From NCBI GenBank assembly GCA_000182565.2, contig KQ257451.1: a stretch of DNA of 64,000 bases; one strand, written 5' to 3'. Each line of letters opens with the position of its first letter. Position 1 is the first letter of the stretch. Positions 7,664-40,467 of this stretch are shown here, in pieces. The notes below the pieces were generated by a model. That model had not been told where the DNA came from. It did not search any database and was given only the letters and a program-made list of their open reading frames with translations. The stretch is from Spizellomyces punctatus DAOM BR117. Lineage: Eukaryota. A program made the position numbers and the translations under genes.

Positions 7664-9679
7664 CTAATGATCAAGGATGCGGAGGTTGCCAGATACGACC
7701 TTGTCATTCAGAATGGCGCCTGATGGGATATCTATTCTCTCGCCGTGGTTAGCGACGATAATGACAGTCCCTAAATTAAATTGTAAGGAACCCACTACAA
7801 CGTTTAAGTCGATGCGCGCATCCAGGTGTTACCTTGAAGAACTACAGAATGTCCAAAGGTCACGTCTCCCGTGACCGTTAGGTGATCCAAGTCCAATATT
7901 TGGGGAGGCCCCTGGAACCGGGACAAAAAGTGGGAAACCTGTAATAACAAGGAAGGAAGGAATTAGGAGAATGCCATGATAATTAGCTACTCGAGGAAGA
8001 CTTGAGGACCTTTTTAAAGTGGTCGCCAAGCTTAACAAGAGGAACTGTCGTGAACTGCCTCTTTGCATTCATTGTGAGATTTCCATGCTCCAATCGATAC
8101 AAGTCCGATGTGATCAAAAACAGATCGGATGTGCTCTTGACAGGCAAGAATCGACTACGAGGGACATTGATACCGTGGGCTCCGTTGAAATGCTTGATAG
8201 CAGCACCGACGGCGGTCTCAAGTTGAATGACCTTTTCCCCGTTTTCCGCGGTCTTATTGTTTACGATAATCTCCATATTCAGCTCGCTGTTGTCGACGAG
8301 GCGTCTGATGGCCTTCAAGGATATCCACAAGTTATTCGTGTTGAAGATCTTGAACTTCTTGATAGATTTGAAATCGTCCACATGTGCAGAGGGTACTTGG
8401 GCGATTTCTAGCAATCGAATGCTGTCCTCGTATTCAATCAGTGTTCCTCCCTTGATGTCAGCCTTTGTCTTGTCGGTCACTTCCATGAGGAATTCTGATC
8501 CCGAGGCAACCATATGCCGAAGGATGTCTATACAGTTTGGAGCCATCAATACTCAGCTTGTGAACCATGAGACCCTAATGTAGTCATCATACGCAATACG
8601 TACTGACATCAACCGTTGCGCCAAGATTGTCAACGTTCGAAACAAATAGATATTCTTTTCCTTGCGCAAGCAGCTCGTCCAATGTCCCACTGTTTGCCAG
8701 TGCTTCAAACAGATCACCGTGTCCTGGTGGGTACCAGTTGCTCACGGCAGCGTCGGGAGAAGTAGGAACGGGAAGGAGGGTATCTTTGGAAACACGGGGG
8801 AACCGCGATTGATTAAATGTCAAGAGCTGAATCTGGTGGCCAGCATATTTCTGAATGATGCGTTTTGTTTCGGTGTCCGTGTTGAAAGAGTTCATTAAGA
8901 CTAGCGGGACGTTCACGTTGTTCTGACGGTTCAGATACTTTTGCCATGCGAATCGGTGTCAATTGAGGTTCACAGGTCATTATACCGTGCGATTTCAAAG
9001 CAGCCTACCTCTATCTGGCGCACTGTGAGATCCAAGAACGTCATTCCCTCTCGAACTTCTATTGCACTGTGACGCAGGCACCGGGCAGTCATGTAAGAGT
9101 TACGAAGTCCATTGATCCTCATTTGTAATGAACATACCTCTTCGGGCCGACACATCCCATTGTCGTGCCAAGTCCACCATTCAGCTTCAGCACGGCTAAT
9201 TTACTTAGGAAATTTGGGACTTCCGCGTCTGGCGTCGCAGGTAGGTCTTTATAGGCGACAATCTACCAGGAGAGTCAGTTGTCTTCGACAGACAAAGGAT
9301 GTGTAGGCATATTTGTGTATGACATACTTTCTCCGGACCTGGTGAGTTGACTGCGTTCCAATTTCTGTACCAAAGATGTTACTGAAAGCGATAGTCTCCT
9401 CGTCACAGTGCTGACCTACAATTTTGTGCCCTTTGCCTTTTCAGACAAGTATCGAGTAAAAAGGGAGTAGAAATTGTCCATTTCCAAAGTGAATGCTGCT
9501 CTCTCGGGGCCCTCTGGCACCATTTCGCACAGCTTGTTGAGCTCGTTCCTCATGCCAGCCGCGGCGACGGCATGCGACTGTTCATGAAAGCCGGCGACGG
9601 ATATCGCTCTGTTATGGTCCAAGGCAGTCATACCTGCCGCGTCTTTTTGAAAACCATCAGCAATGCTTGTAAAGCTCAT
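7664..9679 (-). CDS. UGP1: UTP-glucose-1-phosphate uridylyltransferase (UDP-glucose pyrophosphorylase)
   Basis: [38 protein letters not shown] and [10 protein letters not shown] motifs; C-terminus [11 protein letters not shown] ends at 7664. Confidence 0.95.
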
Positions 9680-10075
9680 GTCGTTTGAGTTTCTTGTTTA
9701 GTTTCTGCTCGAGTGTAAGATGTGATGTATAACGAAGGGAAGGTGGGGAGAAGGACTAGCGGGGAGGAACGTGGGTAATGACGTACATGGATATGCTAAG
9801 CCATTAGAATGGCACAGTTTTACGATGAGGTTGATGGCACAGCCAACGGCACGGTGACTGAATACGAGCCCTGTCGTGGCCGGTGCGGCCTCCATTGTTA
9901 CTCGAGCAACGCTGCGTTTTGTAGGTCGATTTTCCACCAAACTGTCGTAGGCTGAGGTCCTCCACACGTTGCAAGTGGTTGCCGAAATCAACAGCTTGAA
10001 CAAGCAGGGGGGGCATCTTGCTGAATTTTGGAAGAATTCACGTAAGCCTGCGTCTGTCATCTCGTCACGTCCACG

Positions 10076-13260
<3,185 letters not shown>

Positions 13261-13477
13261 CGGTGATGTACTACTAATATTCCGGAAATATATCACACTT
13301 GCTTTGATTTCTTGAGTGTGCATCCTTTTACTGGTGTGGACTTTTCATGTGATCAAAGCCTTGCACAGGCACGCTCGGTAAAATCCTCACCAGAAATCAA
13401 AGGATATTGGCAAGAGGGCCTCCACGGCGAAATGATTATAATGTAATGTACAACGGAAAATTGAAGCCCGTCCATCA

Positions 13478-13796
13478 TCATGCGGACTTGTCGGCAGAGG
13501 ATGGTGGAGGCATTGGAATGTTATCAAAATCGTCACGGCCCGTCTTGTACATTGAATAACCAACTAGATTTGAGCGTTCCAGAGTGTGAGTCCAGGACAT
13601 CCCAACCATAAACTCCAAGGTCATGAGCAACAGCCAACTTACATATAGCCAGCGTTCCTCCCAAAAGAATTCCTCCCACTATCATATTCCTCTTACGGTA
13701 CGGCCGCATAATCTCCATTTTGGCGGCCATGAGCTGCTCGGGCGTCATGCTACGTTGGTAGGCGTTCAAATGTCTGTACGCTTCCTGAACTGGCAT
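13478..13796 (-). CDS. Small mitochondrial membrane protein, COA3-like (cytochrome c oxidase assembly factor 3), 2 exons
   Basis: M...MRPYRKRNMIVGGILLGGTLAI, then an intron, then ...MYKTGRDDFDNIPMPPPSSADKSA*. This resembles the fungal Coa3 pattern (RPY..N, one TM helix, DDF.D). Confidence 0.6.
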
Positions 13797-13950
13797 CTAT
13801 ACTCAACCATGTTAGTGATTGCATTAATTGCAAGTGTCAATGCGCGGTATATGCGATTAACTCACGTTATGGAAATCAAAAGGGTGAGCAGGCTGTTGAG
13901 GTGCTGTCGGAAGGGGCGGAGGATGAGCCATTTTGGTGATTTCCAAAGCG

Positions 13951-15753
13951 TTAACTTGCAAGCGAACTAGTTGCTTGTTCACTGTGCGCGTTGCCAGGAC
14001 ACCCAGAGATGCTAGTGACGTGGTCATATAGTGTGCCCCGTTTGTGGACTTTTTCAACCTTGCCTTCTCGTCGTCGATAAGGTCTTGAATGAGGTCGTTC
14101 TTTGAATTTTTTCTCCACAAACTCAGATGAGGAACAGCGAGGGCAAACAGATGAGGTCTTGTACTCGTCGAGAAGGAAACAATCAATGCGGTTGCGCTTA
14201 AAGAGGGTGCTCCAGCCTTTCGTCTTTGATGAGGTCTGAAATCTCGCAGTTCGACCAGCGTCGCTCCAATCACCCATCACAATGGTAAAGTTCCCAAACT
14301 TGTTGCGCAAGTTGGATATGAGGTTCGATTCGCTTCGCTGCCGATTGATGAAGGAGTGCCATTTCCATCGCATGTGGGCAGGGTGGGAGTAGAATTCCTT
14401 GCGACGATCCCAATCAGCGCGGCGAACGAGAAGGTAGCGAGTGAAGTCCATGAGGTTCATTGTTTTGTGGGATGGTATTCGTGATTCTATGAGATCAACT
14501 CCAGCTTCTTCCTTCATTGCTTCTCGTCTCTTTGCAAATCGCCGGCTACCTGTCTCCACGGCTCGCTGGTTGGCGGTGTAGCGAAATGTCGTACCACTGT
14601 TGTCTTGGCAGTAGAGAAGATCGCGCTTGTTTGGGTCGATAACGATGACATTTTCTGCTGCTCGACAAGCAGGCAAGTTTTTCTCCACATATTGCGCTTT
14701 AACGTCGTCCTCTAAACTCTTTGCTGACTTTCTCGCTCCGCGCTTTCCACACTTGTCTGCTTCTGGGTGCTTTAGGTATACAGACACCGAGGTTCCGTCC
14801 GTCGTGATCGAGCCTTCAAAACACATTCCATGACGAGATCTAAAAGCCTTGTTCTGCAGATTACAGATGCGCAACCATAAATCGACCTTCTCTACGGCTT
14901 CTGCTTCTCGTCGCGTGATGCAGAGGATGTGGGCGTAGAGAATGAGCGTGTCGATGCGAATATGGGACTGAATCAGAGACCGATGAAGAGGGATTGCACT
15001 GAACCGACGGAAGCCATGTCGTTCATACAGCCCAGAGAGTTTGCAGTATGCAGGAAAGAAAGCGAGAGGGTCTACAGCAACCGAATATGCGAACGGCTGG
15101 TCAGAAAGGGGAATGAAGGACCACATCTCTTCTAGAAGTTCACTCTCTTTAGCAGTCAAGTCATCAAGTGACTCGGGCACAATATCAAAAAGGAAAATTG
15201 ACTTCAAGTAGCGTAGCCGAGCAAAGAAAGCTTTCCGCGCTTCACTCTTTGGAGGCCCTTTCCGTCCCTTCACGTCGAGCCGCAGATTGATATACCGAAG
15301 GAGCATCTGCATGAAATGCTCTTGAACGTTGACTTTCAGGTTCGTCATCATACTCACTGTCAGGTAATTGACTGATTGCTGCTCGCCTCGTAGATTTGGG
15401 TGAACAAAGCCGACGATTTGGCAGTACCGTTGAACATATGGCAGCAAACAATCCCGCCATGCCTTCTTTGCTTCCTTTCTTGGATGCCAAGCCTCCCCCT
15501 TGTTGAGAAGATAGAGAATCGCTTCGATTGTATCTTCATTTACCGTGGGAAAGGTTGGTGCAGATAGGATGTAGAATTTGAGAGCGTGGGAAGCGTGGTC
15601 GGCGAGTTGATGGATGATGGCGATGTAATCTAAAAGCCGTTGGCAGTAGATGTCGTTTGGCAGGAAAGCTTTTGCAAAGGAAGTCTTGTTGCAGGTATGT
15701 AAGCAAGTAGGTTTGTCGAGTTTTTCGAGCCTTTGCTTTTTCTTTGGTGGCAT
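13951..15753 (-). CDS. Fanzor1 (TnpB/Cas12-like RuvC RNA-guided endonuclease), C-terminally truncated: 570 Fanzor codons plus a 30-aa foreign tail
   Basis: Starts MPPKKKQR (NLS-like, ATG 15753). Has SITTDGTSVS, RuvC-I VIVIDPNKRD (Asp codon 14635-14637), VMGDWS, RuvC-II LLDEYKTSSVCPRC (Glu 14164-14166; CxxC 14134-14145). Very similar to recalled SpuFz1 up to ...EKVH, then diverges; no second Cys pair and no NRD RuvC-III. Confidence 0.92.
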   Translation of the reverse strand: MPPKKKQRLEKLDKPTCLHTCNKTSFAKAFLPNDIYCQRLLDYIAIIHQLADHASHALKFYILSAPTFPTVNEDTIEAILYLLNKGEAWHPRKEAKKAWRDCLLPYVQRYCQIVGFVHPNLRGEQQSVNYLTVSMMTNLKVNVQEHFMQMLLRYINLRLDVKGRKGPPKSEARKAFFARLRYLKSIFLFDIVPESLDDLTAKESELLEEMWSFIPLSDQPFAYSVAVDPLAFFPAYCKLSGLYERHGFRRFSAIPLHRSLIQSHIRIDTLILYAHILCITRREAEAVEKVDLWLRICNLQNKAFRSRHGMCFEGSITTDGTSVSVYLKHPEADKCGKRGARKSAKSLEDDVKAQYVEKNLPACRAAENVIVIDPNKRDLLYCQDNSGTTFRYTANQRAVETGSRRFAKRREAMKEEAGVDLIESRIPSHKTMNLMDFTRYLLVRRADWDRRKEFYSHPAHMRWKWHSFINRQRSESNLISNLRNKFGNFTIVMGDWSDAGRTARFQTSSKTKGWSTLFKRNRIDCFLLDEYKTSSVCPRCSSSEFVEKKFKERPHSRPYRRREGKVEKVHKRGTLYDHVTSISGCPGNAHSEQATSSLAS

Positions 15754-15906
15754 GATGATATCTGTAGAAAAGCCTGGGAAAATGGGCGACGACTTATATA
15801 GGATTTTTTGGATCAAACCATAATTCATGAGTCTAAATCGAGTAAAATTATGATTAAATTGGTTGGAATCTCTGTACTAGTACCAATACCAATCGGCTCC
15901 GCACTA
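14029..15906 (-). mobile_element. Spu-1-like Fanzor1-carrying TIR element, internally/3'-deleted, putative TA target-site duplication
   Basis: Left end on the minus strand reads CA-TA|GTGCGGAGCCGATTGGTATTGGTACTAGTAC (15908->15874). The other end keeps only ...CAC|TA (14033->14029) after a 10-nt non-Fanzor junction segment. It contains one long intronless ORF, unlike nearly all host genes. Confidence 0.8.
15874..15906 (-). repeat. Left terminal inverted repeat of the Fanzor element plus TA
   Basis: Plus strand GTACTAGTACCAATACCAATCGGCTCCGCACTA closely matches the recalled 3' end of the SpuFz1 omegaRNA/right TIR (...GUGCUAGUGCCAAUACCCACCGGCUCCGCACUA), as expected for an inverted repeat. Includes the 10-bp palindrome GTACTAGTAC. 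Confidence 0.8.
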
Positions 15907-16175
15907 TGTATTCCGTTCACACGGATGGCATATCTGTTTTTCCTCGTAGACATATATATATCGGCGGCGCCTCAGATACTTGTCACCTTCAACTGCTATA
16001 GAATTATCTTTTTATTGAATTTGCTCCCAAGTCCTTTCGTTATAATTGGTGTGCAGTATAAGGTCCGGATAACTTGGCAGCTAAAGATTTTCTGCATACC
16101 ATGGACAAATTGTGGACAATAAAGTCTAGTCTTGCAGAGGGTAGAATACTCACATGGTCTGCAAGAAATAAAGTC

Positions 16176-17142
16176 CTATATCTCAATCATTCTCTTTAAA
16201 AACTCAGGGGCGCGGAGAAGCCTTCGTCCTTCAGAGATCTCCATTCTCGGATAGACATCATCGAGAAAATAGTATACATGCCCCACAGCCAGCCCCATGA
16301 GGTCGCCTGCCGGCCATTGGTTGTTCAGGAGGATGGTAAACCCGAGTAGCACCCATGGCAGGTACGGAGCAGTAAAAGTGAAGATCCCCAGAAAGTTCAT
16401 TCGAATGAATGCATTTCGTCGTGACCAGACGTAAACGAGCATGAAAGTTAGAGGAGAAGAGAGGAACGGGATGGAGGTACGAGCAGGGAGTAGAGGCGAC
16501 ATGCCCTGAGAAGAAAAGGTTGGTTACTATTACATGACTTTTTGACGTATATCACGTCAAACTTTTCCGACGTAAGCTTACGATTGTTGCCAGCATTCCA
16601 AATAATAGAAACCATAGGAAGTCAGCCGTCCTCCCACGGAAAGAGCCTTCCTCCAACATACGGCTATATCGGACGCTGGAAAAACAACATTTGAGCATTT
16701 GCTTGTCCGCTTCACCAGACTAACACTAGCCATACGTACAGGAAGAACATGTGGAAGAGGAAGTCGAGCGAAAAGTTTCCAAAGTACAGGAAGCTTGTGA
16801 TAAGTCGCCACCACTGTGATGCACCAACCAAATCAGTCACACACCAACAATCATTAATGGTGGACCAACAGGGACGCAGAAAGCTGCCTCAAAGCCTCAT
16901 GTACTTACTTGTCTGGATCGCCATATCAGCGTCCAGTTGAAGTAAAGGTGAAAGGGCGACACGAGATCCAGTTGCTACATGAATGCAATTGTGATAGATC
17001 CGTCGGTGATCGATTCCATTGTGCCAAGGGAAACCCCACATACTGAACTTACGCAGGCAAGGGTGGTCAACACCACAGCGGTAACATATGTCCGTGTGAT
17101 GACCGGTACTTCATAGTACCACTCTTCTATAGGAAATGGCAT
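16176..17142 (-). CDS. Derlin (Derlin-2/Der1 family ERAD membrane protein)
   Basis: [62 protein letters not shown] and [12 protein letters not shown]. Confidence 0.92.
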
Positions 17143-17879
17143 GCCGAACTATCTTTGCCCAGGCTTGGAGTCGGGTCGCGGATCTGTGTTATCCACCACC
17201 ATGACGTGTTCCTTGTGCTTGGTACTCACGTGTCAAGCAAGCGAGAACTACAAACTGCATCTACTCCACACAGCGATAATGCCCAGCTCTTTCCAAAACA
17301 TCTTTTTTAAACCAAGAGATATGCTCCAGGTAGATGATGTGATGATGATGGATTTGAGTGCATTGCTGTCATCGGCGGATGAATCATTTCACATCTATGC
17401 AAACCAATGCACGCTTGCAAATTTCCAATAGTCTTTTGACATGAGTATCCAACCCATATCTTAACATTTGCAGTTTGAGCAGTTTTGCATGACAAAAGCG
17501 CCCGTTGAATGAAGCCTTGTTTACATGCCGCAGTCATCATGGCCGTGGCACAGGCATCGGAATGTGTATGACTGTGCCATTATGGCTATTGGGTCACAAG
17601 CGGGCGGCAAGAGGTCAGCAATTGTGGTCTCAGAACGGCTTCAGGGCTTTCAACAACATCTTACGTGCTCGTCCTAGATTCCGCCACGTCTGAGAACGAG
17701 CGTTCTGCCAACGCATCTCGTGTCGAATACTTTTAAACAGCATACTCTCTGTTTTCTTACACTCTTGGCTGTCAGTCTCGGAGTGAGCGTTACGTGACCC
17801 TGCTCGATCCCGCCTCCTGCGCATCTCGCGTTTGTGACCTTTCCCTCAAAACAACGTTACCCTTTCTTTTCTGGCAACA

Positions 17880-19019
<1,140 letters not shown>

Positions 19020-19516
19020 GAGCTGGATTGGGTGGTGAGGGACGAGTTTGTTGCACATTTGTCGCATTATAATGACGGTGATTAAGCGTGGTGATAGAAA
19101 AATGGCCGTCTGCGTGTGGTTGAGGTTCTCTTATGCTGTTAACTGTTCAAATACCAGAATATTGTCTTCTTTTTATATTCGCCCTATTGATCATTTTGCC
19201 ATCTGTTGCCTCTGCTCGTGCCAATCGAGCGCTCTTCCCGCGGGCCAAATTTCAGATCCGCTTTTTGAACCCTTTTTCGCGCCCACCTTTCAAACTCTGG
19301 GACAAAACTCACGTGCCTCGCCTAGCAACAAAGGCAAAGCTTTAAAGCGTCGATTCAATTCATGACTTGCAAAGCGGAGTTTTTGGGGGTTAGGGGGCAT
19401 GGCATGGGGCAACAGTTTGCGACCTTGCACTGCCAGAACACTGCCTCACCCCGTCTTTTCCCATTCATCATTAAGCATTTTCCTTTCCTTGAGTTGTGTA
19501 CTTGTGTTTACCCATC

Positions 19517-20552
19517 ATGTCTACCGAGGCCGCGAATGTAAAGAACAGCACGGTAAAGGAGCCTGGCTCACCCGAAAAGCCATTTGACTCAACAGGAAGT
19601 GAAACAAGTGATGGAAGACCCTCTCTTATCACTCGGTTCCACTCGTCGGTTCTGGATCCAGAGAGAAGTTCATCTCCTTACCGCGTAGCGGAGGCAATCG
19701 ACCGTGAGGGTGGCTTGCTCTGGCCATCAAAGGGCACCAAATTGCGCAAAGACGAGTCACCCGAAGAGAGGAAAGAGCGCCTCGAGCGGATGGCGGGTGC
19801 TATAAAAACAGTTATTGAATGTGTGGGGGAAGACCCGGACCGTGAAGGGGTTATGAAGACACCCATGCGCTACGCCCAAGCTCTCATGTTCTTCACTCAG
19901 GGATATGAGCAGAATATGAAAGACATTATCAATCAGGCTGTCTTTGAGGAGGATCATGACGAAATGGTCATTGTCAAGAACATAGACATCTTCTCTTTGT
20001 GCGAGCACCATATGGTCCCCTTTGTGGGAAAGGTGAGCTGGGCATCGCACATTGAAAGTGTGTCTCATCCTCTAACTCTAACACACTTTTTCAGGTCAGC
20101 ATCGGATATATACCGGATAAGCGCGTGCTCGGTTTGAGCAAACTGGCTCGGATAGCCGAAATGTTCAGCCGCCGTTTACAGGTACAGGAGCGACTTACAA
20201 AGCAGATCGCCATGTCGCTTCAGGAGATCTTAAAACCGCAAGGCGTTGCTGTCACAATGGAAGCATCGTGAGTGCCGATGCTTTGCACTGTGTGCTACAA
20301 AGTTGTGAGATGTGCGAGATCTTTAATGCGGCGAATATTGCAGGCACATGTGTATGGTCATGCGTGGTGTGCAGAAACCGGGCAGTAGCACTGTCACAAG
20401 TTGCATGCTTGGTGTCTTTAGAGAGGACCCGAAAACCAGGGAAGAGTTCTTAAGAGTGAGTATACCTGTCCCTCACTTGCCATTGCAGCCATGCGAACAA
20501 TCACTGATGCATCTTTTTGCGACCATAGCTCATCCGATCCCAGGGGCTGTAG
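19517..20552 (+). CDS. FOL2: GTP cyclohydrolase I
   Basis: [63 protein letters not shown] and TREEFL. Confidence 0.95.
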
Positions 20553-21066
20553 AAAGGATGTAGAACATATACCCATATACGGCGAATGCTCTTGAGCATT
20601 TTACCGTGACCATAGTCTTCATAAGTGGTTCATGTGGTCCCGTAACTGATTGGTTGCAAAGACTCTTTTGTTCAAATGTACAAGTGTTAAAGTGCTAAAT
20701 AACGTCATAAAAAATATAAAACAGGCTCAAACGTCCTTCCGATCAGTCACTAATGATTGAGTGGCTCAACGACCTTTCCTTCCGATCGTGGTCCATTCAT
20801 TGAAAATCTCAAGGAAAACAAACGGACAAAGGAGGATATTTACCCTCGGCAATCGACGTGATGACGAACGAAATACGTGATCGCACTAATAGACCCTTTG
20901 TTTGGATTGCTTTCAGTTGGGTCGTCTCTCCATGACTGTGCATCTAAGATCACGTGGTACATTTCTTTTTGCGCCCGCATTTCGTCCCCCGTTGAGGTTT
21001 TCCTTCCTTTTGCAGCCCGCTATTGACAATCCCCAACCTTCAGTTTGTCAACGCTAAACAGTAGCC

Positions 21067-21469
21067 ATGGAAAACGAGAAGGGCCAGGTACGGTCCTGAT
21101 TCTGAATGGCATTTGTCGTATCACCAGCCAGTCACTAATGATTGATTGCCTCAACGACCTTTCATTGCAGATCGTTGACCTTTACATTCCCCGCAAGTGC
21201 TCTGCCACTGGACGCCTCATCACCGCCAAGGACCACGCCTCCGTCCAAATCAACGTTGGCGATGTTGACGCTTCTGGCCGTCTCACAGGTACCTTCCAGA
21301 CCTATGCTCTGTCCGGATTTGTGCGTTCCATGGGAGAGTCCGACGACTCTGTCAACAGACTCGCTACTGCTGATGGATACCTTAAGGGGTGGGTTCTTTT
21401 CAAAGGATAAAAGGTGTTTTTAAGACTTACTCATTCTCTACGTGCAGTGTCTGGAGCTACCAGCAGTAA
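21067..21469 (+). CDS. RPS21: 40S ribosomal protein S21 (eS21), 3 exons
   Basis: [37 protein letters not shown]...[11 protein letters not shown]...GVWSYQQ*. Confidence 0.96.
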
Positions 21470-21906
21470 ATGTTGACTCGTCACGTAAACCCGGCACACG
21501 CACGTTCGTGGGAGTTGTTGGAGGGTGGGAATCTGTAGATATGCCTAATGTACTGATGGTATCCTCAGTGAATACACGACTGTCCTTTGTCGAACTTGCT
21601 TCTAGTGTTGAATTGCAACGGAACAATATGAAGGGGCCGCAACATTTTTTGGATGCGTACAGGACTGGGAGAAATACGACATCATCAAATGGAAGTGGAA
21701 AGTTGGGATTGGCCAAGACAATCTAATCTCATATAATGATCCTCAAGGGGATAAGGGGGTATAATTGCAAGGAGACTAATACTGGAAGTAGTTCACTTTG
21801 ATAAAGGTTGGCGTATTGGCAACACATTAGATATGTACCCTAGGCCGGTCGATAGTCTCCCTCCAAGTAAACCACAGTGCCGGACTTGTGACGCGGTGAA
21901 TCTTCG

Positions 21907-24900
21907 CTATTTCGTTGGTGACGATGATTGCTGGGTTTTGATACCCTTTAGAACTGTATCAATGCTCTTCCTCTTGGCTTTCTCTGCCGGAGTCGATTTT
22001 GCAAATACAGAGGTATCGCCCTTCATTCTTGAAGGATAGCATATCGTGATTAATAGAATAATCAACAGTCAAATGCGCATCTCACTCACTTTTCAAGCAC
22101 AACAGCGAGGTTGTTGAATTTGATACGCGAATATCTCTTGTCCCTAATCGCCGGATTCAGAATGTCCTCGTAGTTGGATGACTTTAGTAGAAGAATAGTC
22201 TGGTTTTCATAATGATAAATAATCCAAGATATGTCATTCGCACGCTAGTATCACCTATAGATCGTACCTGTCTCAGTTCTGCGAAAGCATCAGTGACACT
22301 GGCTTCTCCCACACCCGCCGCAAACTTTTCCAAGAATGCGACATCGTTATCGAATATGTCGATTATTCCAGGGCTGAGGCGTTTAATATCAGGATCTAAT
22401 AGGAGACCCTGACGTCAAATGTTATTAGTAAGAAGCAAGATTGCATTTGAAAACAGAACCTCACATAAATTGCGGATGCTAGGTGCTTAAATGCGCCTAG
22501 GTAGATTTGGCTGCGCATGTTAGAGGGAAGGTTGATCAATGTTGACGTGATAATGGCGTTCATGAAGGTGACCAGGTCTAAGCAGGATCTAGGGTCAATA
22601 TATCACCATACATCACAAATCGAATTTGGTAGGTCTAGACATTCACCATCCAAGTATGCGCTGTGACCATCTTGGCTTTTGGCTGGGAGCGGGTTGTTCC
22701 TATAGTAATATTCAGAAACTGCAAAGTATCAGCCCAAACAGATCCATACCAATCGTAATCCGCAAGTTCCAAGAATTCGTCCATTTTCATGTTTAGCAGC
22801 TCAAACAGGCGTTTCTCTGCCAAAATTCGGGATTCTTTAAATACTTGGGTCGCGGATAGCCGAATGATACCCGCTTTATGTGCTGTCCTAAGGACACAAC
22901 ATAATTATGAGCATCAAATGGTATGGGAACACCAGTGCCTCAGATACCTGTTTTCCATCAGAAGCTGCTCAAACTCCGCGCATGCCATCTCGAAGTACTC
23001 GAGATTGATCATTATTTGAACGACTTGAGACATGTTATTCACCATTATCTTCCTCATTAAGGTGCCATTGAGCGTCTGCACCAAAAGATTCTCCAAAGAT
23101 TTTTTGAGCAAATCGTCCATTTCGTTGTACTGTTGCTCGAAGCCCTCTGCAAATCTGTAGAAACCGGTAATGAATTGCTTGATGCGGTCGCAGCATTGTG
23201 GAAAGCCTTTGGAGAAGGGTAAAGTTTTCGGAAATCTGGGGTCCGACATGATTTCGGTGAGACCAGCTGGATGACATAAACGGAGCAGAAGAAAAACTAA
23301 CCGGATGCTAGACGCCCATTCTTTGGACACATATTTGAGATTTCTCGTCTTGGAATCGTCTTTGAGTTTGAAAGCGACGGTAACTTTGTCATATTCTTGT
23401 TGGTCATTGACAATCATGGGGGCGTACTCGTCCTCTTCTACAGTCTGCGTGATCGTTGAGCCAATGCTCCAACGCTCCATTTCGGCATTACCGCAGGAAA
23501 TGAGAAATGACACTCACCTCAACTAAGCTCTCGCTACACTTTGATTTCATCAGTTCACCGTAGCGATCAAGTAGAGATAGCATCAAATCCATGAGGCTAG
23601 TCACTGCAAAGCCGTACGACTAGTATGGTGACATTATCGGCATTTAGTCCCCGTGAACTCAAGTGCTTGGCATACGTTATCTTCCCTAAACAAAACATAC
23701 CTCCATAGTGTCAATGAAGTTCACAACTCGGAGCTTAATGGCCAGGAACAGGTCAGGGTCTCGGCAGTCCTGCAAACTATCCGTAATAACCTCGTTCATT
23801 TTATCGGTTGCATTGGACCACAGACTTTCTACCTATTATAAAGCAGTAAGGACGAAGCACAAATGCAAATGAGTGAACATCTGCTTACGCCGCTTCGCGA
23901 ACGAAAGTTCTGGGTAGAATTCATGACGATTGCCTCAATGATAAAGAAGCCGACAACGTCGTGAAGGTATCTATCAAATCCGGAAAGGTCGCCAGTCTCA
24001 AAAGAGAATCGTTGTCCCACCAGCAAGCGCGCTTGCATCTGTGATAGGCTGCGTTAAACGACTATTCCCCGTTTCCTCGCGCAATCGGACTCCAACATGT
24101 ATTTACTCTTCTCTTCTCTTCATAGAGGCTTCGGAAATCATTTCTTTTGTCCAGTACTTCATGGATATGCAAACATTGATACAAGGGTCTGAAATCAATC
24201 CTCGTTTCGTCGTTTTCGTGGTCGTCACCTATAAAGAGTTATCGTAAGATTATGTTGAATGAGATCATATAAAGGCGGCTTTATACCATGATCAGCGAGC
24301 AGCTCCAGTGATTGGCCGAGATTAAGGCTACTAGCAGAAACGGACATTCCCCGCGCAAGCTTTCCGGCTTTATCCTTTGCTTTGTCTTGCTTTGCAGCTA
24401 TGTGCTCCAATGCCATTTTCCCTATTCCTCGGGTGTTTTCCCGTATACTGTTGTGCATTATTAATTGTTTGTTTCGGCCTGTTAGGATCTCCGGTAGACG
24501 ACATGCAGATGATGCTCACTTGACTAGCCATTCTTGCATTTCCTCCAATACAGCCTCGCGGATGTTTTCCTGCATAATGGGAATGTACTCCTCTATTGAT
24601 GCTGCTAGTGAACTTTTTGTCCAAAGTGGTTCACCTGTATTCTCTTACTCACGCATGTGTTTGGCAAAACTGTATTGTGTCACCGGCCGCAAATGTGTTG
24701 CCTGCAGCTCCTCCAACATCTGCCACGGAGACCATCAGATCACGCCAGGCACTCCAGCAGGACGCTAATGTACCTTCAGCGCGGAATAATACTTGCGGCT
24801 TTCGATGCTTGCATTCACTTTGTTGGCAATATCCAGTACAAATAAGCATGACTGTAGGGATTCGACAGCAAGCTCGATATTCAACAACGTCTGCCGACTT

Positions 24901-38670: not shown

Positions 38671-40467
38671 TTATTTAAACAAGTTTTTGAGCTGCAGAAA
38701 AGTGACATCAGTGAACCATCACACGAAGCACAACTGAACGGTGTCAATGTCTTGCCTTTTTCAGGAAGCCACCTTTCTTCTTGCCGACCGATCCAGATGT
38801 AGCGGTAGTGGGTTTCGCCTCGGGCTTTGTGAAAACGAATATACGCATCTGAGTACTATGCAAAACTAAAGATGCCTGTGCACAGAAATACCTTCTCTGC
38901 CGGAGTCTCAGTAGGAGTCGCCGTTTCCTTAGCAGCTTCCTTGGTGGTGGCAGGGGTTTCCTTGACGGGGACAGCGGGTGTAGGTGGTTCTGTTGGCACA
39001 ATACTCTCCGAGGGCGGGGGAACAGCCGCGGTCTCCGGCACACTGGTAGGAGCGGGCGCAGCCGACTCCGTCGTTTTGGGTTCTTCGGCTTCATTGCTTG
39101 CTGATGCAGCACTCGCTCTGAGGCTGTTCAAAGCAGCCTCTGTAACATTATCCGATTTTGCGGGGCTCTCTTCTTTCGCGACGGCGGTACCTTCCAGCGG
39201 AGGTGTTGCGATGGGAATCGCTTCCAACGCCAAAGGTGCTTCAGACGTAATGGCAACAGCTGCAGCGGACACAGGAGCAATTTCCGCTGCGGCAGATTTC
39301 TCCACGATAGGTTCCTCCACAGCCCCCAGTTCCTCCACGACAGGGGTGGTGGCTTCGGTAATGGGTGCAGGGGTCGCTTCCACTTTAACCGATTCGGCCG
39401 GTTCGACAATGTCTTTGATCTCCGGTACAGTAATCTCGGTGGGCCCGGGCACTTCGACAGAGGCTGGCGCAGCTTCAACTTCGACGACCTCCTCAGCGGA
39501 AGGTGTGTCAACCTTGTCCTCCACCTTGGGCTCAACGACTTGGGTTTCGACAGGTGCAGCACTAACTTCCGGAACAGGAGCTGCCAAAACTTCAGACGGT
39601 GTATCCTCCACCTTGGGCTCTTGCACGCTAATGGCTGCGACCGGCGCAACCTCAGCCTGTGTCTCTTCGGCAGCTTCAAGAGGTTCGGGGACGACAACCT
39701 CTGCGGGTGTTTCCTCTTTGGCTTCCTCCACAGGCGCTCCACCCGTAGCAGGTTGTGTCTCTACTTCTACAGTATCTTCAGCATGTACTGGAGTGGCTTC
39801 GCTCGCTGCAGGTACTTCAGCGGGAACCTCAACAGGAGCAGACTCTGCGAGAACTTGGGGTTCTTTGGCAGTCACCTCTTCAGCCTTTTCAACAGGAGCG
39901 GGCACCGTAGTGGATTGCGGAGCGGGACCCGAGGCCGGCTCGGCAGATTCCTCAGGAAATGTGAAAACGTTGTTCTGATTGCCCTGTTCGGATGGATATT
40001 CCGGTCAGCAGCCGTGAAGAAGAGCAGATCAGGCGACATTGCAGCACTCACACTTTCATCGGTTTCAATTTCATAGTTGTCAGCATTCTTCCAATCGTCA
40101 TCGACAACGAACTTGAATGCAATCTTGGTGTTTGCGGGCAGGTCGAGCTTCGCGCGATGGATGCCGTCTTCACCCTGATAAACAACATCAATCACGTTAA
40201 CGCGATTCTCGGCAAAATAGACATATCCCCAACTCCTCTCACCTTCACCGCTACATTCTCTTGTTTCCAGTCATCAAAATCGCCAGTGAGAATGACCTAG
40301 ATTGACAAAAGACCTTCACTCAGCAACGATCACTAGTATCGTGTGATAGGACACCCCTTCTGCGACATTCAGGACAACGTCGGTGGAGAGCGACCGAAAC
40401 TCTCTTACGCGCCCGTAATGCGTACCTTTTCACCGCCTTGTTTCCATTCAAATATCTGAAGAACCAT
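38671..40467 (-). CDS. AMPK-beta-type CBM48 glycogen-binding domain protein with a long Glu/Ala/Pro/Val-rich tail (Crp1/Mdg1-like architecture)
   Basis: Spliced N-terminus MVLQIFEWKQGGEK|VILTGDFDDWK...IAFKFVVDDDWK...GNQNN, a ~350-aa low-complexity exon, and the end KKKGGFLKK|LKNLFK*. Confidence 0.75.

Follow-up and report, generated by a model that had tools for sequence, protein, structure and literature searches.

The left border of a truncated SPu-1 copy in Spizellomyces punctatus and the CATA motif beside it

The Fanzor1 fragment and its neighbours

The window, the whole stretch of 64 kb of Spizellomyces punctatus DNA analysed here, carried a Fanzor1 coding part on the minus strand at 14044-15753, which was open throughout its 570 codons from Met to His. 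The Met (MPPKKKQR...) was at 15753, within a stop-to-stop frame of 641 codons (13951-15876, minus strand) that lay inward of a terminal inverted repeat (IR). A phmmer search against solved structures revealed a match to 8gkh_P (SpuFz1 fusion, Spizellomyces punctatus) with E=0 and 1122.9 bits, in which residues 42-611 of the query were aligned to residues 395-975 of the chain, and the second match was the Parasitella Fanzor1 at 1.3e-35. Pfam assigned no family to the frame at E<=0.1, which was consistent with the presence of only half of the zinc ribbon. The residues were mapped by hand from the phmmer alignment onto the residue numbers of Saito 2023. On this mapping, the catalytic residues D383 and N385 of RuvC-I (IDPNKRD, 14640-14620) and E541 of RuvC-II (LLDEYKTS, 14175-14152) were retained, as were the first CPRC (CxxC) of the zinc ribbon and five of the six residues that contact the TAM (R96, Q129, Q130, N133, and R291). 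Two hand-mapped positions differed from SpuFz1, with Y345 replaced by C and W570 by Y. The C stood at P0001 residue 376 (about 14751-14749 of the window), in the place of a tyrosine credited with initiating DNA unwinding at the TAM, and the Y stood at P0001 residue 600 (about 14079-14077), in the place of a tryptophan that stacks on the omegaRNA.

The similarity to intact copies ended at a break point between 14043 and 14044, and the alignment with SpuFz1 stopped at the residues EKVH (14055-14044). Beyond the break, 30 unrelated codons and a stop (13951-14043, minus strand) replaced the last ~56 residues of the nuclease; this stretch was unique host DNA, and its depth in the DNA reads (X22) was at the unique level. 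A contig from another copy (X10) went loose "before 14044", and hand translation of its 30 loose letters gave ten open codons in frame with two cysteines, which, judged by eye, may fit the form expected for the zinc ribbon's second half. The region of D606 (RuvC-III), the second Cys pair, the stop, the omegaRNA scaffold, and the right IR were missing from this copy, a loss of ~250 bp. The 1861 bp retained and the about 250 bp missing gave about 2.1 kb, which fits the published length of the element. No other Fanzor copy, ghost element, or IR piece was found elsewhere in the 64-kb window, so the copy was shortened by a deletion and was not split by an inserted element. Two 14-mer matches with 3 mismatches, at 39054 and 61376, looked like chance. 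Rfam gave no match in 12000-18000.

The copy did not have the complete RuvC triad and zinc ribbon of an active nuclease. Neither a matching right IR nor a 75-nt omegaRNA scaffold was present, the homology ending at 14044, and this absence is a loss by deletion and not the mark of a different family. The left TA was present (15905-15906), and the right end of the element was deleted. The OMEGA system at this locus is defunct, being without the omegaRNA, the right IR, RuvC-III, and half of the zinc ribbon. Beyond what is in print, this analysis adds that only a dead fragment remains of this copy, ending at the 14043/14044 break, together with the results on the palindrome and the hairpin given below.

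A Der1-like gene (PF04511, 2.5e-27) lay upstream on the same strand at 16176-16523 (minus). A contig of RNA reads (X1) ended near 15991, about 85 nt before the transposon border, and the element therefore sits just past the 3' end of the Der1-like gene. On the other side, a small spliced gene (13470-13941, minus strand; MAHPPPLP...) started about 100 nt downstream of the Fanzor break, and the Fanzor fragment is now in its upstream region. The two introns of this gene (13564-13642 and 13797-13865) were confirmed by joints in the X1 and X21 RNA reads, with CT..AC on the plus strand, and Pfam found nothing in its exon 2. The orientation of the X21 reads (first mate = sense) was calibrated on two neighbouring minus-strand genes. 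X21 reads antisense to the 5' part of Fanzor (15440-15867, plus strand) reached a depth of 30-190 and mostly carried the letters of other copies (for example, 192 of 226 at 15823). At the IR, minus-strand reads of this run dominated (240 vs 56 at 15882) and did not continue inward (17 at 15823).

The left terminal repeat and the CATA junction

Read directly from the window, the minus strand at 15914..15874 was GGAATA CATA GTGCGGAGCCGATTGGTATTGGTACTAGTAC. The plus strand carried GTACTAGTAC at 15874-15883, CAATACCAATCGGCTCCGCAC at 15884-15904, and TATG at 15905-15908, with TTGGTTGG at 15859-15866. The left terminal inverted repeat of the SPu-1 element, 31 nt as drawn, occupied 15874-15904 (minus strand), and the subterminal left region together with the 5' untranslated stretch occupied 15754-15873 (minus strand), up to the ATG at 15753; several small indels of other copies fell within this region, at 15765-15804. 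The TA adjoining the repeat (15905-15906, minus strand) was the presumed left copy of the TA target-site duplication and provided the last two bases of the TAM. Together with it, the CA of the flank (15907-15908, minus strand) spelled 5'-CATA, the published TAM of SpuFz1. The earlier note had set CATA directly against the left IR, and the letters of the minus strand from 15908 to 15874 were exactly as written there. With up to 3 mismatches allowed, the 31-mer of the repeat had a single occurrence in the 64-kb window, and none of 100 shuffles gave a match; no second copy of the IR appeared in the window even when 11 of the 31 positions were allowed to differ. When an inverted-repeat partner was sought in 8000-24000, none of the 10 pairs listed touched 15874-15904.

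In the available text of Bao & Jurka 2013 (PMC3627910), SPu-1 measures about 2,100 bp, is present in 17 full-length copies, and ends in 33-bp TIRs with a TA directly outside them that is given as a putative target site duplication; the TA that the earlier note had taken for a duplication agrees with this description. In the parts of Saito 2023 (PMC10432273) that were available, the locus measures ~2.1 kb, 42 Fz loci (19 full-length) and 134 ghost loci are counted, and the IRs are 30 nt long with CA conserved upstream of the left (5') IR only, at both Fz and ghost loci, the sequence past the 3' conserved region being variable. The same parts report that the TAM 5'-CATA was obtained from an unbiased 8N cleavage screen and that each base was required, and "TAM regions" are mentioned in the legend to the locus drawing (Extended Data Fig. 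3a). The identification of CATA as the SpuFz1 TAM in the earlier note accords with this TAM and with the CA upstream of the 5' IR. CA|TA-GTGCGG fits the description only if the published 30-nt IR is taken to begin with TA, and with the IR taken in this way, CA was present directly upstream of the left IR here. The omegaRNA is given there as a 75-nt scaffold spanning the 3' IR, followed by a variable guide of 14-15 nt. It follows from this span, and not from the letters, that the IR matches the 3' end of the omegaRNA scaffold as had been claimed in the earlier note; printed letters of the scaffold or the IR were not found in Saito 2023 or Xu 2024. A review of 2026 (PMC13565253, available in part) likewise counts the 5' TSD as part of the TAM and places the 3' TSD in the scaffold. 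The TAM, the conservation of CA, and the omegaRNA over the 3' IR are established in print. The reading of CATA as flank is correct, yet it was already published. The first section of the Results in a Cell 2024 paper (PMC11423790) gives CATA to GtFz1 and TTAA to SpuFz1, the opposite of Saito 2023, and this reversed order is probably a slip in the sentence.

The depth of the DNA reads showed where the repeat begins and ends. In X22, the depth per strand was about 70 at 13407-13941 and 47-65 at 13942-14048, rose to about 700 at 14049-14155, and was 400-1160 over 14049-14797, 321-329 at 14798-14904, and 110-240 over 14905-15867. Toward the left border it was 220-240 at 15761-15867, 73-78 at 15868-15974, and 8 at 15975-16081, staying at 8-20 past 15975. 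From this profile, a multi-copy repeat spans about 14044-15906 and ends at the CATA border. Among the groups of loose ends listed at the border for the X21 RNA reads, one was found behind 15907 (76 reads, agreement 0.58) and a second behind 15910 (31 reads, agreement 0.54), and no listed group fell inside the terminal repeat. Because the listed loose ends lay only behind these two positions, no listed group retained less than TAT beyond the IR, which on the element strand corresponds to ATA in front of it. The border at the left IR is real, as seen in both the drop in depth and the loose ends at 15907 and 15910.

The two groups of loose ends also bear on a different placement of the border, in which CATA is part of the element. 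The terminus would then be 5'-CATAGTGCGG..., the duplicated TA would be at 15909-15910, and the motif would be carried by the transposon and not by the target. The window does read TA-CATA-GTGCGG, and the 31-read group was alike through 15910, retaining TATGTA. However, the larger group already diverged at 15908, the base corresponding to the C of CATA; the available text of Saito 2023 has CA upstream of the 5' IR only, with a variable 3' side; and that of Bao & Jurka puts TA directly outside the 33-bp TIRs. This placement is very unlikely. As for the 76 reads themselves, CATA is not universal if they came from left ends, and their divergence is expected if they came from right ends, where the IR is followed by TA and a variable guide.

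Within the repeat, the 3' part of the Fanzor gene (14049-14904) was mostly 3-8 times deeper in X22 than the 5' part (14905-15867), which would be explained by 5' truncation of many copies or by a better conserved 3' part. Another recurrent break was suggested by a loose end common to 29 reads at 14178.

The junction was also compared with the composition of the window, in which CATA made up 0.36% of the 4-mers and TA and CA made up 4.7% and 7.2% of the dinucleotides, respectively. With TA granted as an obligatory target, CA adds a coincidence of about 1 in 14, and a single junction is therefore weak evidence alone; the CATA junction gains its weight from the published conservation of CA across the loci of the family. 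The CA beside the TA could otherwise be a target taste of a TA-inserting transposase, or chance, without a functional tie to the nuclease. At the frequency of CA in the window, one copy proves little, and TA-targeting transposases have wider preferences, which counts for this explanation. In favor of it, SPu-1 is without a known transposase: none was found within the Spu-1 IRs according to the available text of Saito 2023 (PMC10432273), where a TnpB-like role is offered as a possibility. No DDE transposase was found in the element here, and Pfam searches of 10 ORFs, comprising 3 shorter stretches and 7 of the 20 in the window that reach 200 aa, gave host families only. On the other hand, the available text of Saito 2023 reports that the unbiased 8N screen of cleavage gave the same four bases, each of them required, and that CA is conserved at Fz and ghost loci. 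A symmetric preference also predicts a conserved TG after the right TA, and such a TG is not reported in that text. A transposase taste or chance is thus quite unlikely to account for the CA.

The earlier note had further pointed to a perfect GTACTAGTAC palindrome in the repeat and to flanking arms that could form a hairpin bound by a transposase. The terminal repeat of this copy departed from the majority of reads at two positions, 15882 and 15891. At 15882, A>G was found in 200 of 207 and 215 of 220 X22 DNA reads (415 of 427 in total) and in 45 of 56 and 233 of 240 X21 RNA reads; at 15891, A>C was found in 92 of 124 and 91 of 129 X22 reads. With G at 15882 in nearly all DNA reads, the perfect palindrome is private to this copy. 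On both strands the arms gave a fold of only -4 kcal/mol, with z of -0.75 and -0.52, and 38 and 56 of 200 shuffles, respectively, folded equally well, whereas the IR alone folded at -0.2 kcal/mol. The hairpin was rejected since its folding energy was no better than that of the 200 shuffles.

The proposed homing logic and the fate of this copy

The locus is very probably the left border of a 3'-truncated, non-functional SPu-1 copy, with the CA and TA of its flank being the motif read by its nuclease SpuFz1. The observations made at the locus itself are the letters of the junction, the protein's identity, the repeat border, and the truncation. SPu-1, the non-autonomous TIR transposon of the soil chytrid Spizellomyces punctatus, encodes the Fanzor1 nuclease SpuFz1. 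The TA is its putative duplicated target, and CA and TA together form the 4-bp motif beside the target that is read by the nuclease. When the element is intact, transcription of the omegaRNA crosses the right IR and continues about 15 nt into the right flank. In the proposed mechanism, which follows the TnpB logic as described in PMC13565253, a filled site would have the form ..CA-TA-[IR-L...IR-R]-TA-flank. A vacant site would have the form ..CA-TA-flank, in which the TAM is followed by a match to the guide, so that the nuclease-RNA complex could cut it and the filled copy could serve as the template for repair. At its left, the filled copy would be spared, since CATA is followed there by the IR and not by a guide match. 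It would also be spared at its right, where ..ACTA would stand before the guide match, provided that the right IR is a mirror of the left; any change of the TAM abolishes cutting in the available text of Saito 2023, and for this reason the filled right junction should escape.

For the homing step, and for whether CA was chosen at insertion or kept afterwards, we can only infer; a retention after insertion that depends on the nuclease was raised for IS607 in the available text of Yoon et al. 2023. Homing has been shown for TnpB and not for Fanzor, for which the hypothesis is in print (PMC13565253 and Saito 2023, each as available in part). The TnpB/Fanzor logic that the earlier note had applied to this junction is in line with the literature, where homing by Fanzor has this same standing.

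The fragment might also be viewed as a gene with a new function, in which the truncated protein could be a nuclease-dead DNA binder that reads CATA and borrows omegaRNAs in trans from ghost loci. This view arises from the open frame of 570 codons, in which RuvC-I, RuvC-II, and five of the six TAM readers were kept, the loss being confined to RuvC-III and the last part of the zinc ribbon. Bacterial TnpB-derived repressors are the family to which such a protein would be the eukaryotic counterpart. Against it, sense RNA over the gene body was near zero, at most 8 deep in X21 with all paralogues pooled, compared with a depth of 20-80 over the neighbouring gene in this one RNA run. A recent deletion would by itself also leave the frame open, and a DNA-binding role is extremely unlikely.

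Taken as the border of a dead SPu-1 copy, the locus is one more example of a coupling between TAM and insertion site, in which the duplicated TA supplies two of the four TAM bases. This coupling was already in print for the SPu-1 family, and the locus matters little beyond annotation. It is a clean fossil, dated by its deletion, of an SPu-1 insertion between the Der1-like gene and the small spliced gene. With the TAM present and the guide absent, it could be used as a control for tests of SpuFz1 homing in S. punctatus.

Comparison with known systems

Relatives of the element were sought outside the genome. The IR pattern (a 22-mer with one N) had 0 matches in metagenome contigs and 0 in viral contigs, and of 147 stretches in metagenome contigs that matched the peptide pattern of the protein, 0 were confirmed by tblastn. 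In contigs of prokaryote genomes, the IR pattern had 1 match, with 23-nt identity at 1416-1438 of L001, a G+C-rich contig of a Bryobacteraceae MAG; about 0.27 matches were expected by chance, assuming uniform composition. This match was considered to be chance, the contig having no other similarity to the window or the protein.

The closest known system is SPu-1 with SpuFz1 (PDB 8GKH). The protein matched at E=0 over 570 residues, the terminal repeat had the published size, compared by length and not by letters, and was followed outward by TA and then CA, and the left border was likewise the end of a multi-copy repeat. Unlike an intact SPu-1, this copy was cut at 14043/14044 and was without the right IR, the omegaRNA, D606, and the second Cys pair. 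It also differed from the majority of SPu-1 reads at two positions of the IR, and from SpuFz1 by the substitutions of Y345 with C and W570 with Y.

The TnpB elements of the IS200/IS605 group, as described in the available text of PMC13565253, likewise have the motif immediately 5' of the left end (for example, TTGAT of ISDra2), and their guide is the right flank and their target is the vacant site, as in the logic of SPu-1. Unlike these elements, which have hairpin ends and insert without duplication, SPu-1 is bounded by TIRs and a putatively duplicated TA, this duplication makes up half of its TAM, and it encodes no transposase. The Fanzor1 element of the insect virus SfAV, in the available text of Yoon et al. 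2023 (bioRxiv), is likewise a non-autonomous TIR element that carries only Fanzor1. Its fixed target motif TTTAN overlaps the duplication TTAN, and its TIR and TSD are built into the scaffold of the guide RNA, whereas its motif, the length of its duplication, and its host are different from those of SPu-1.
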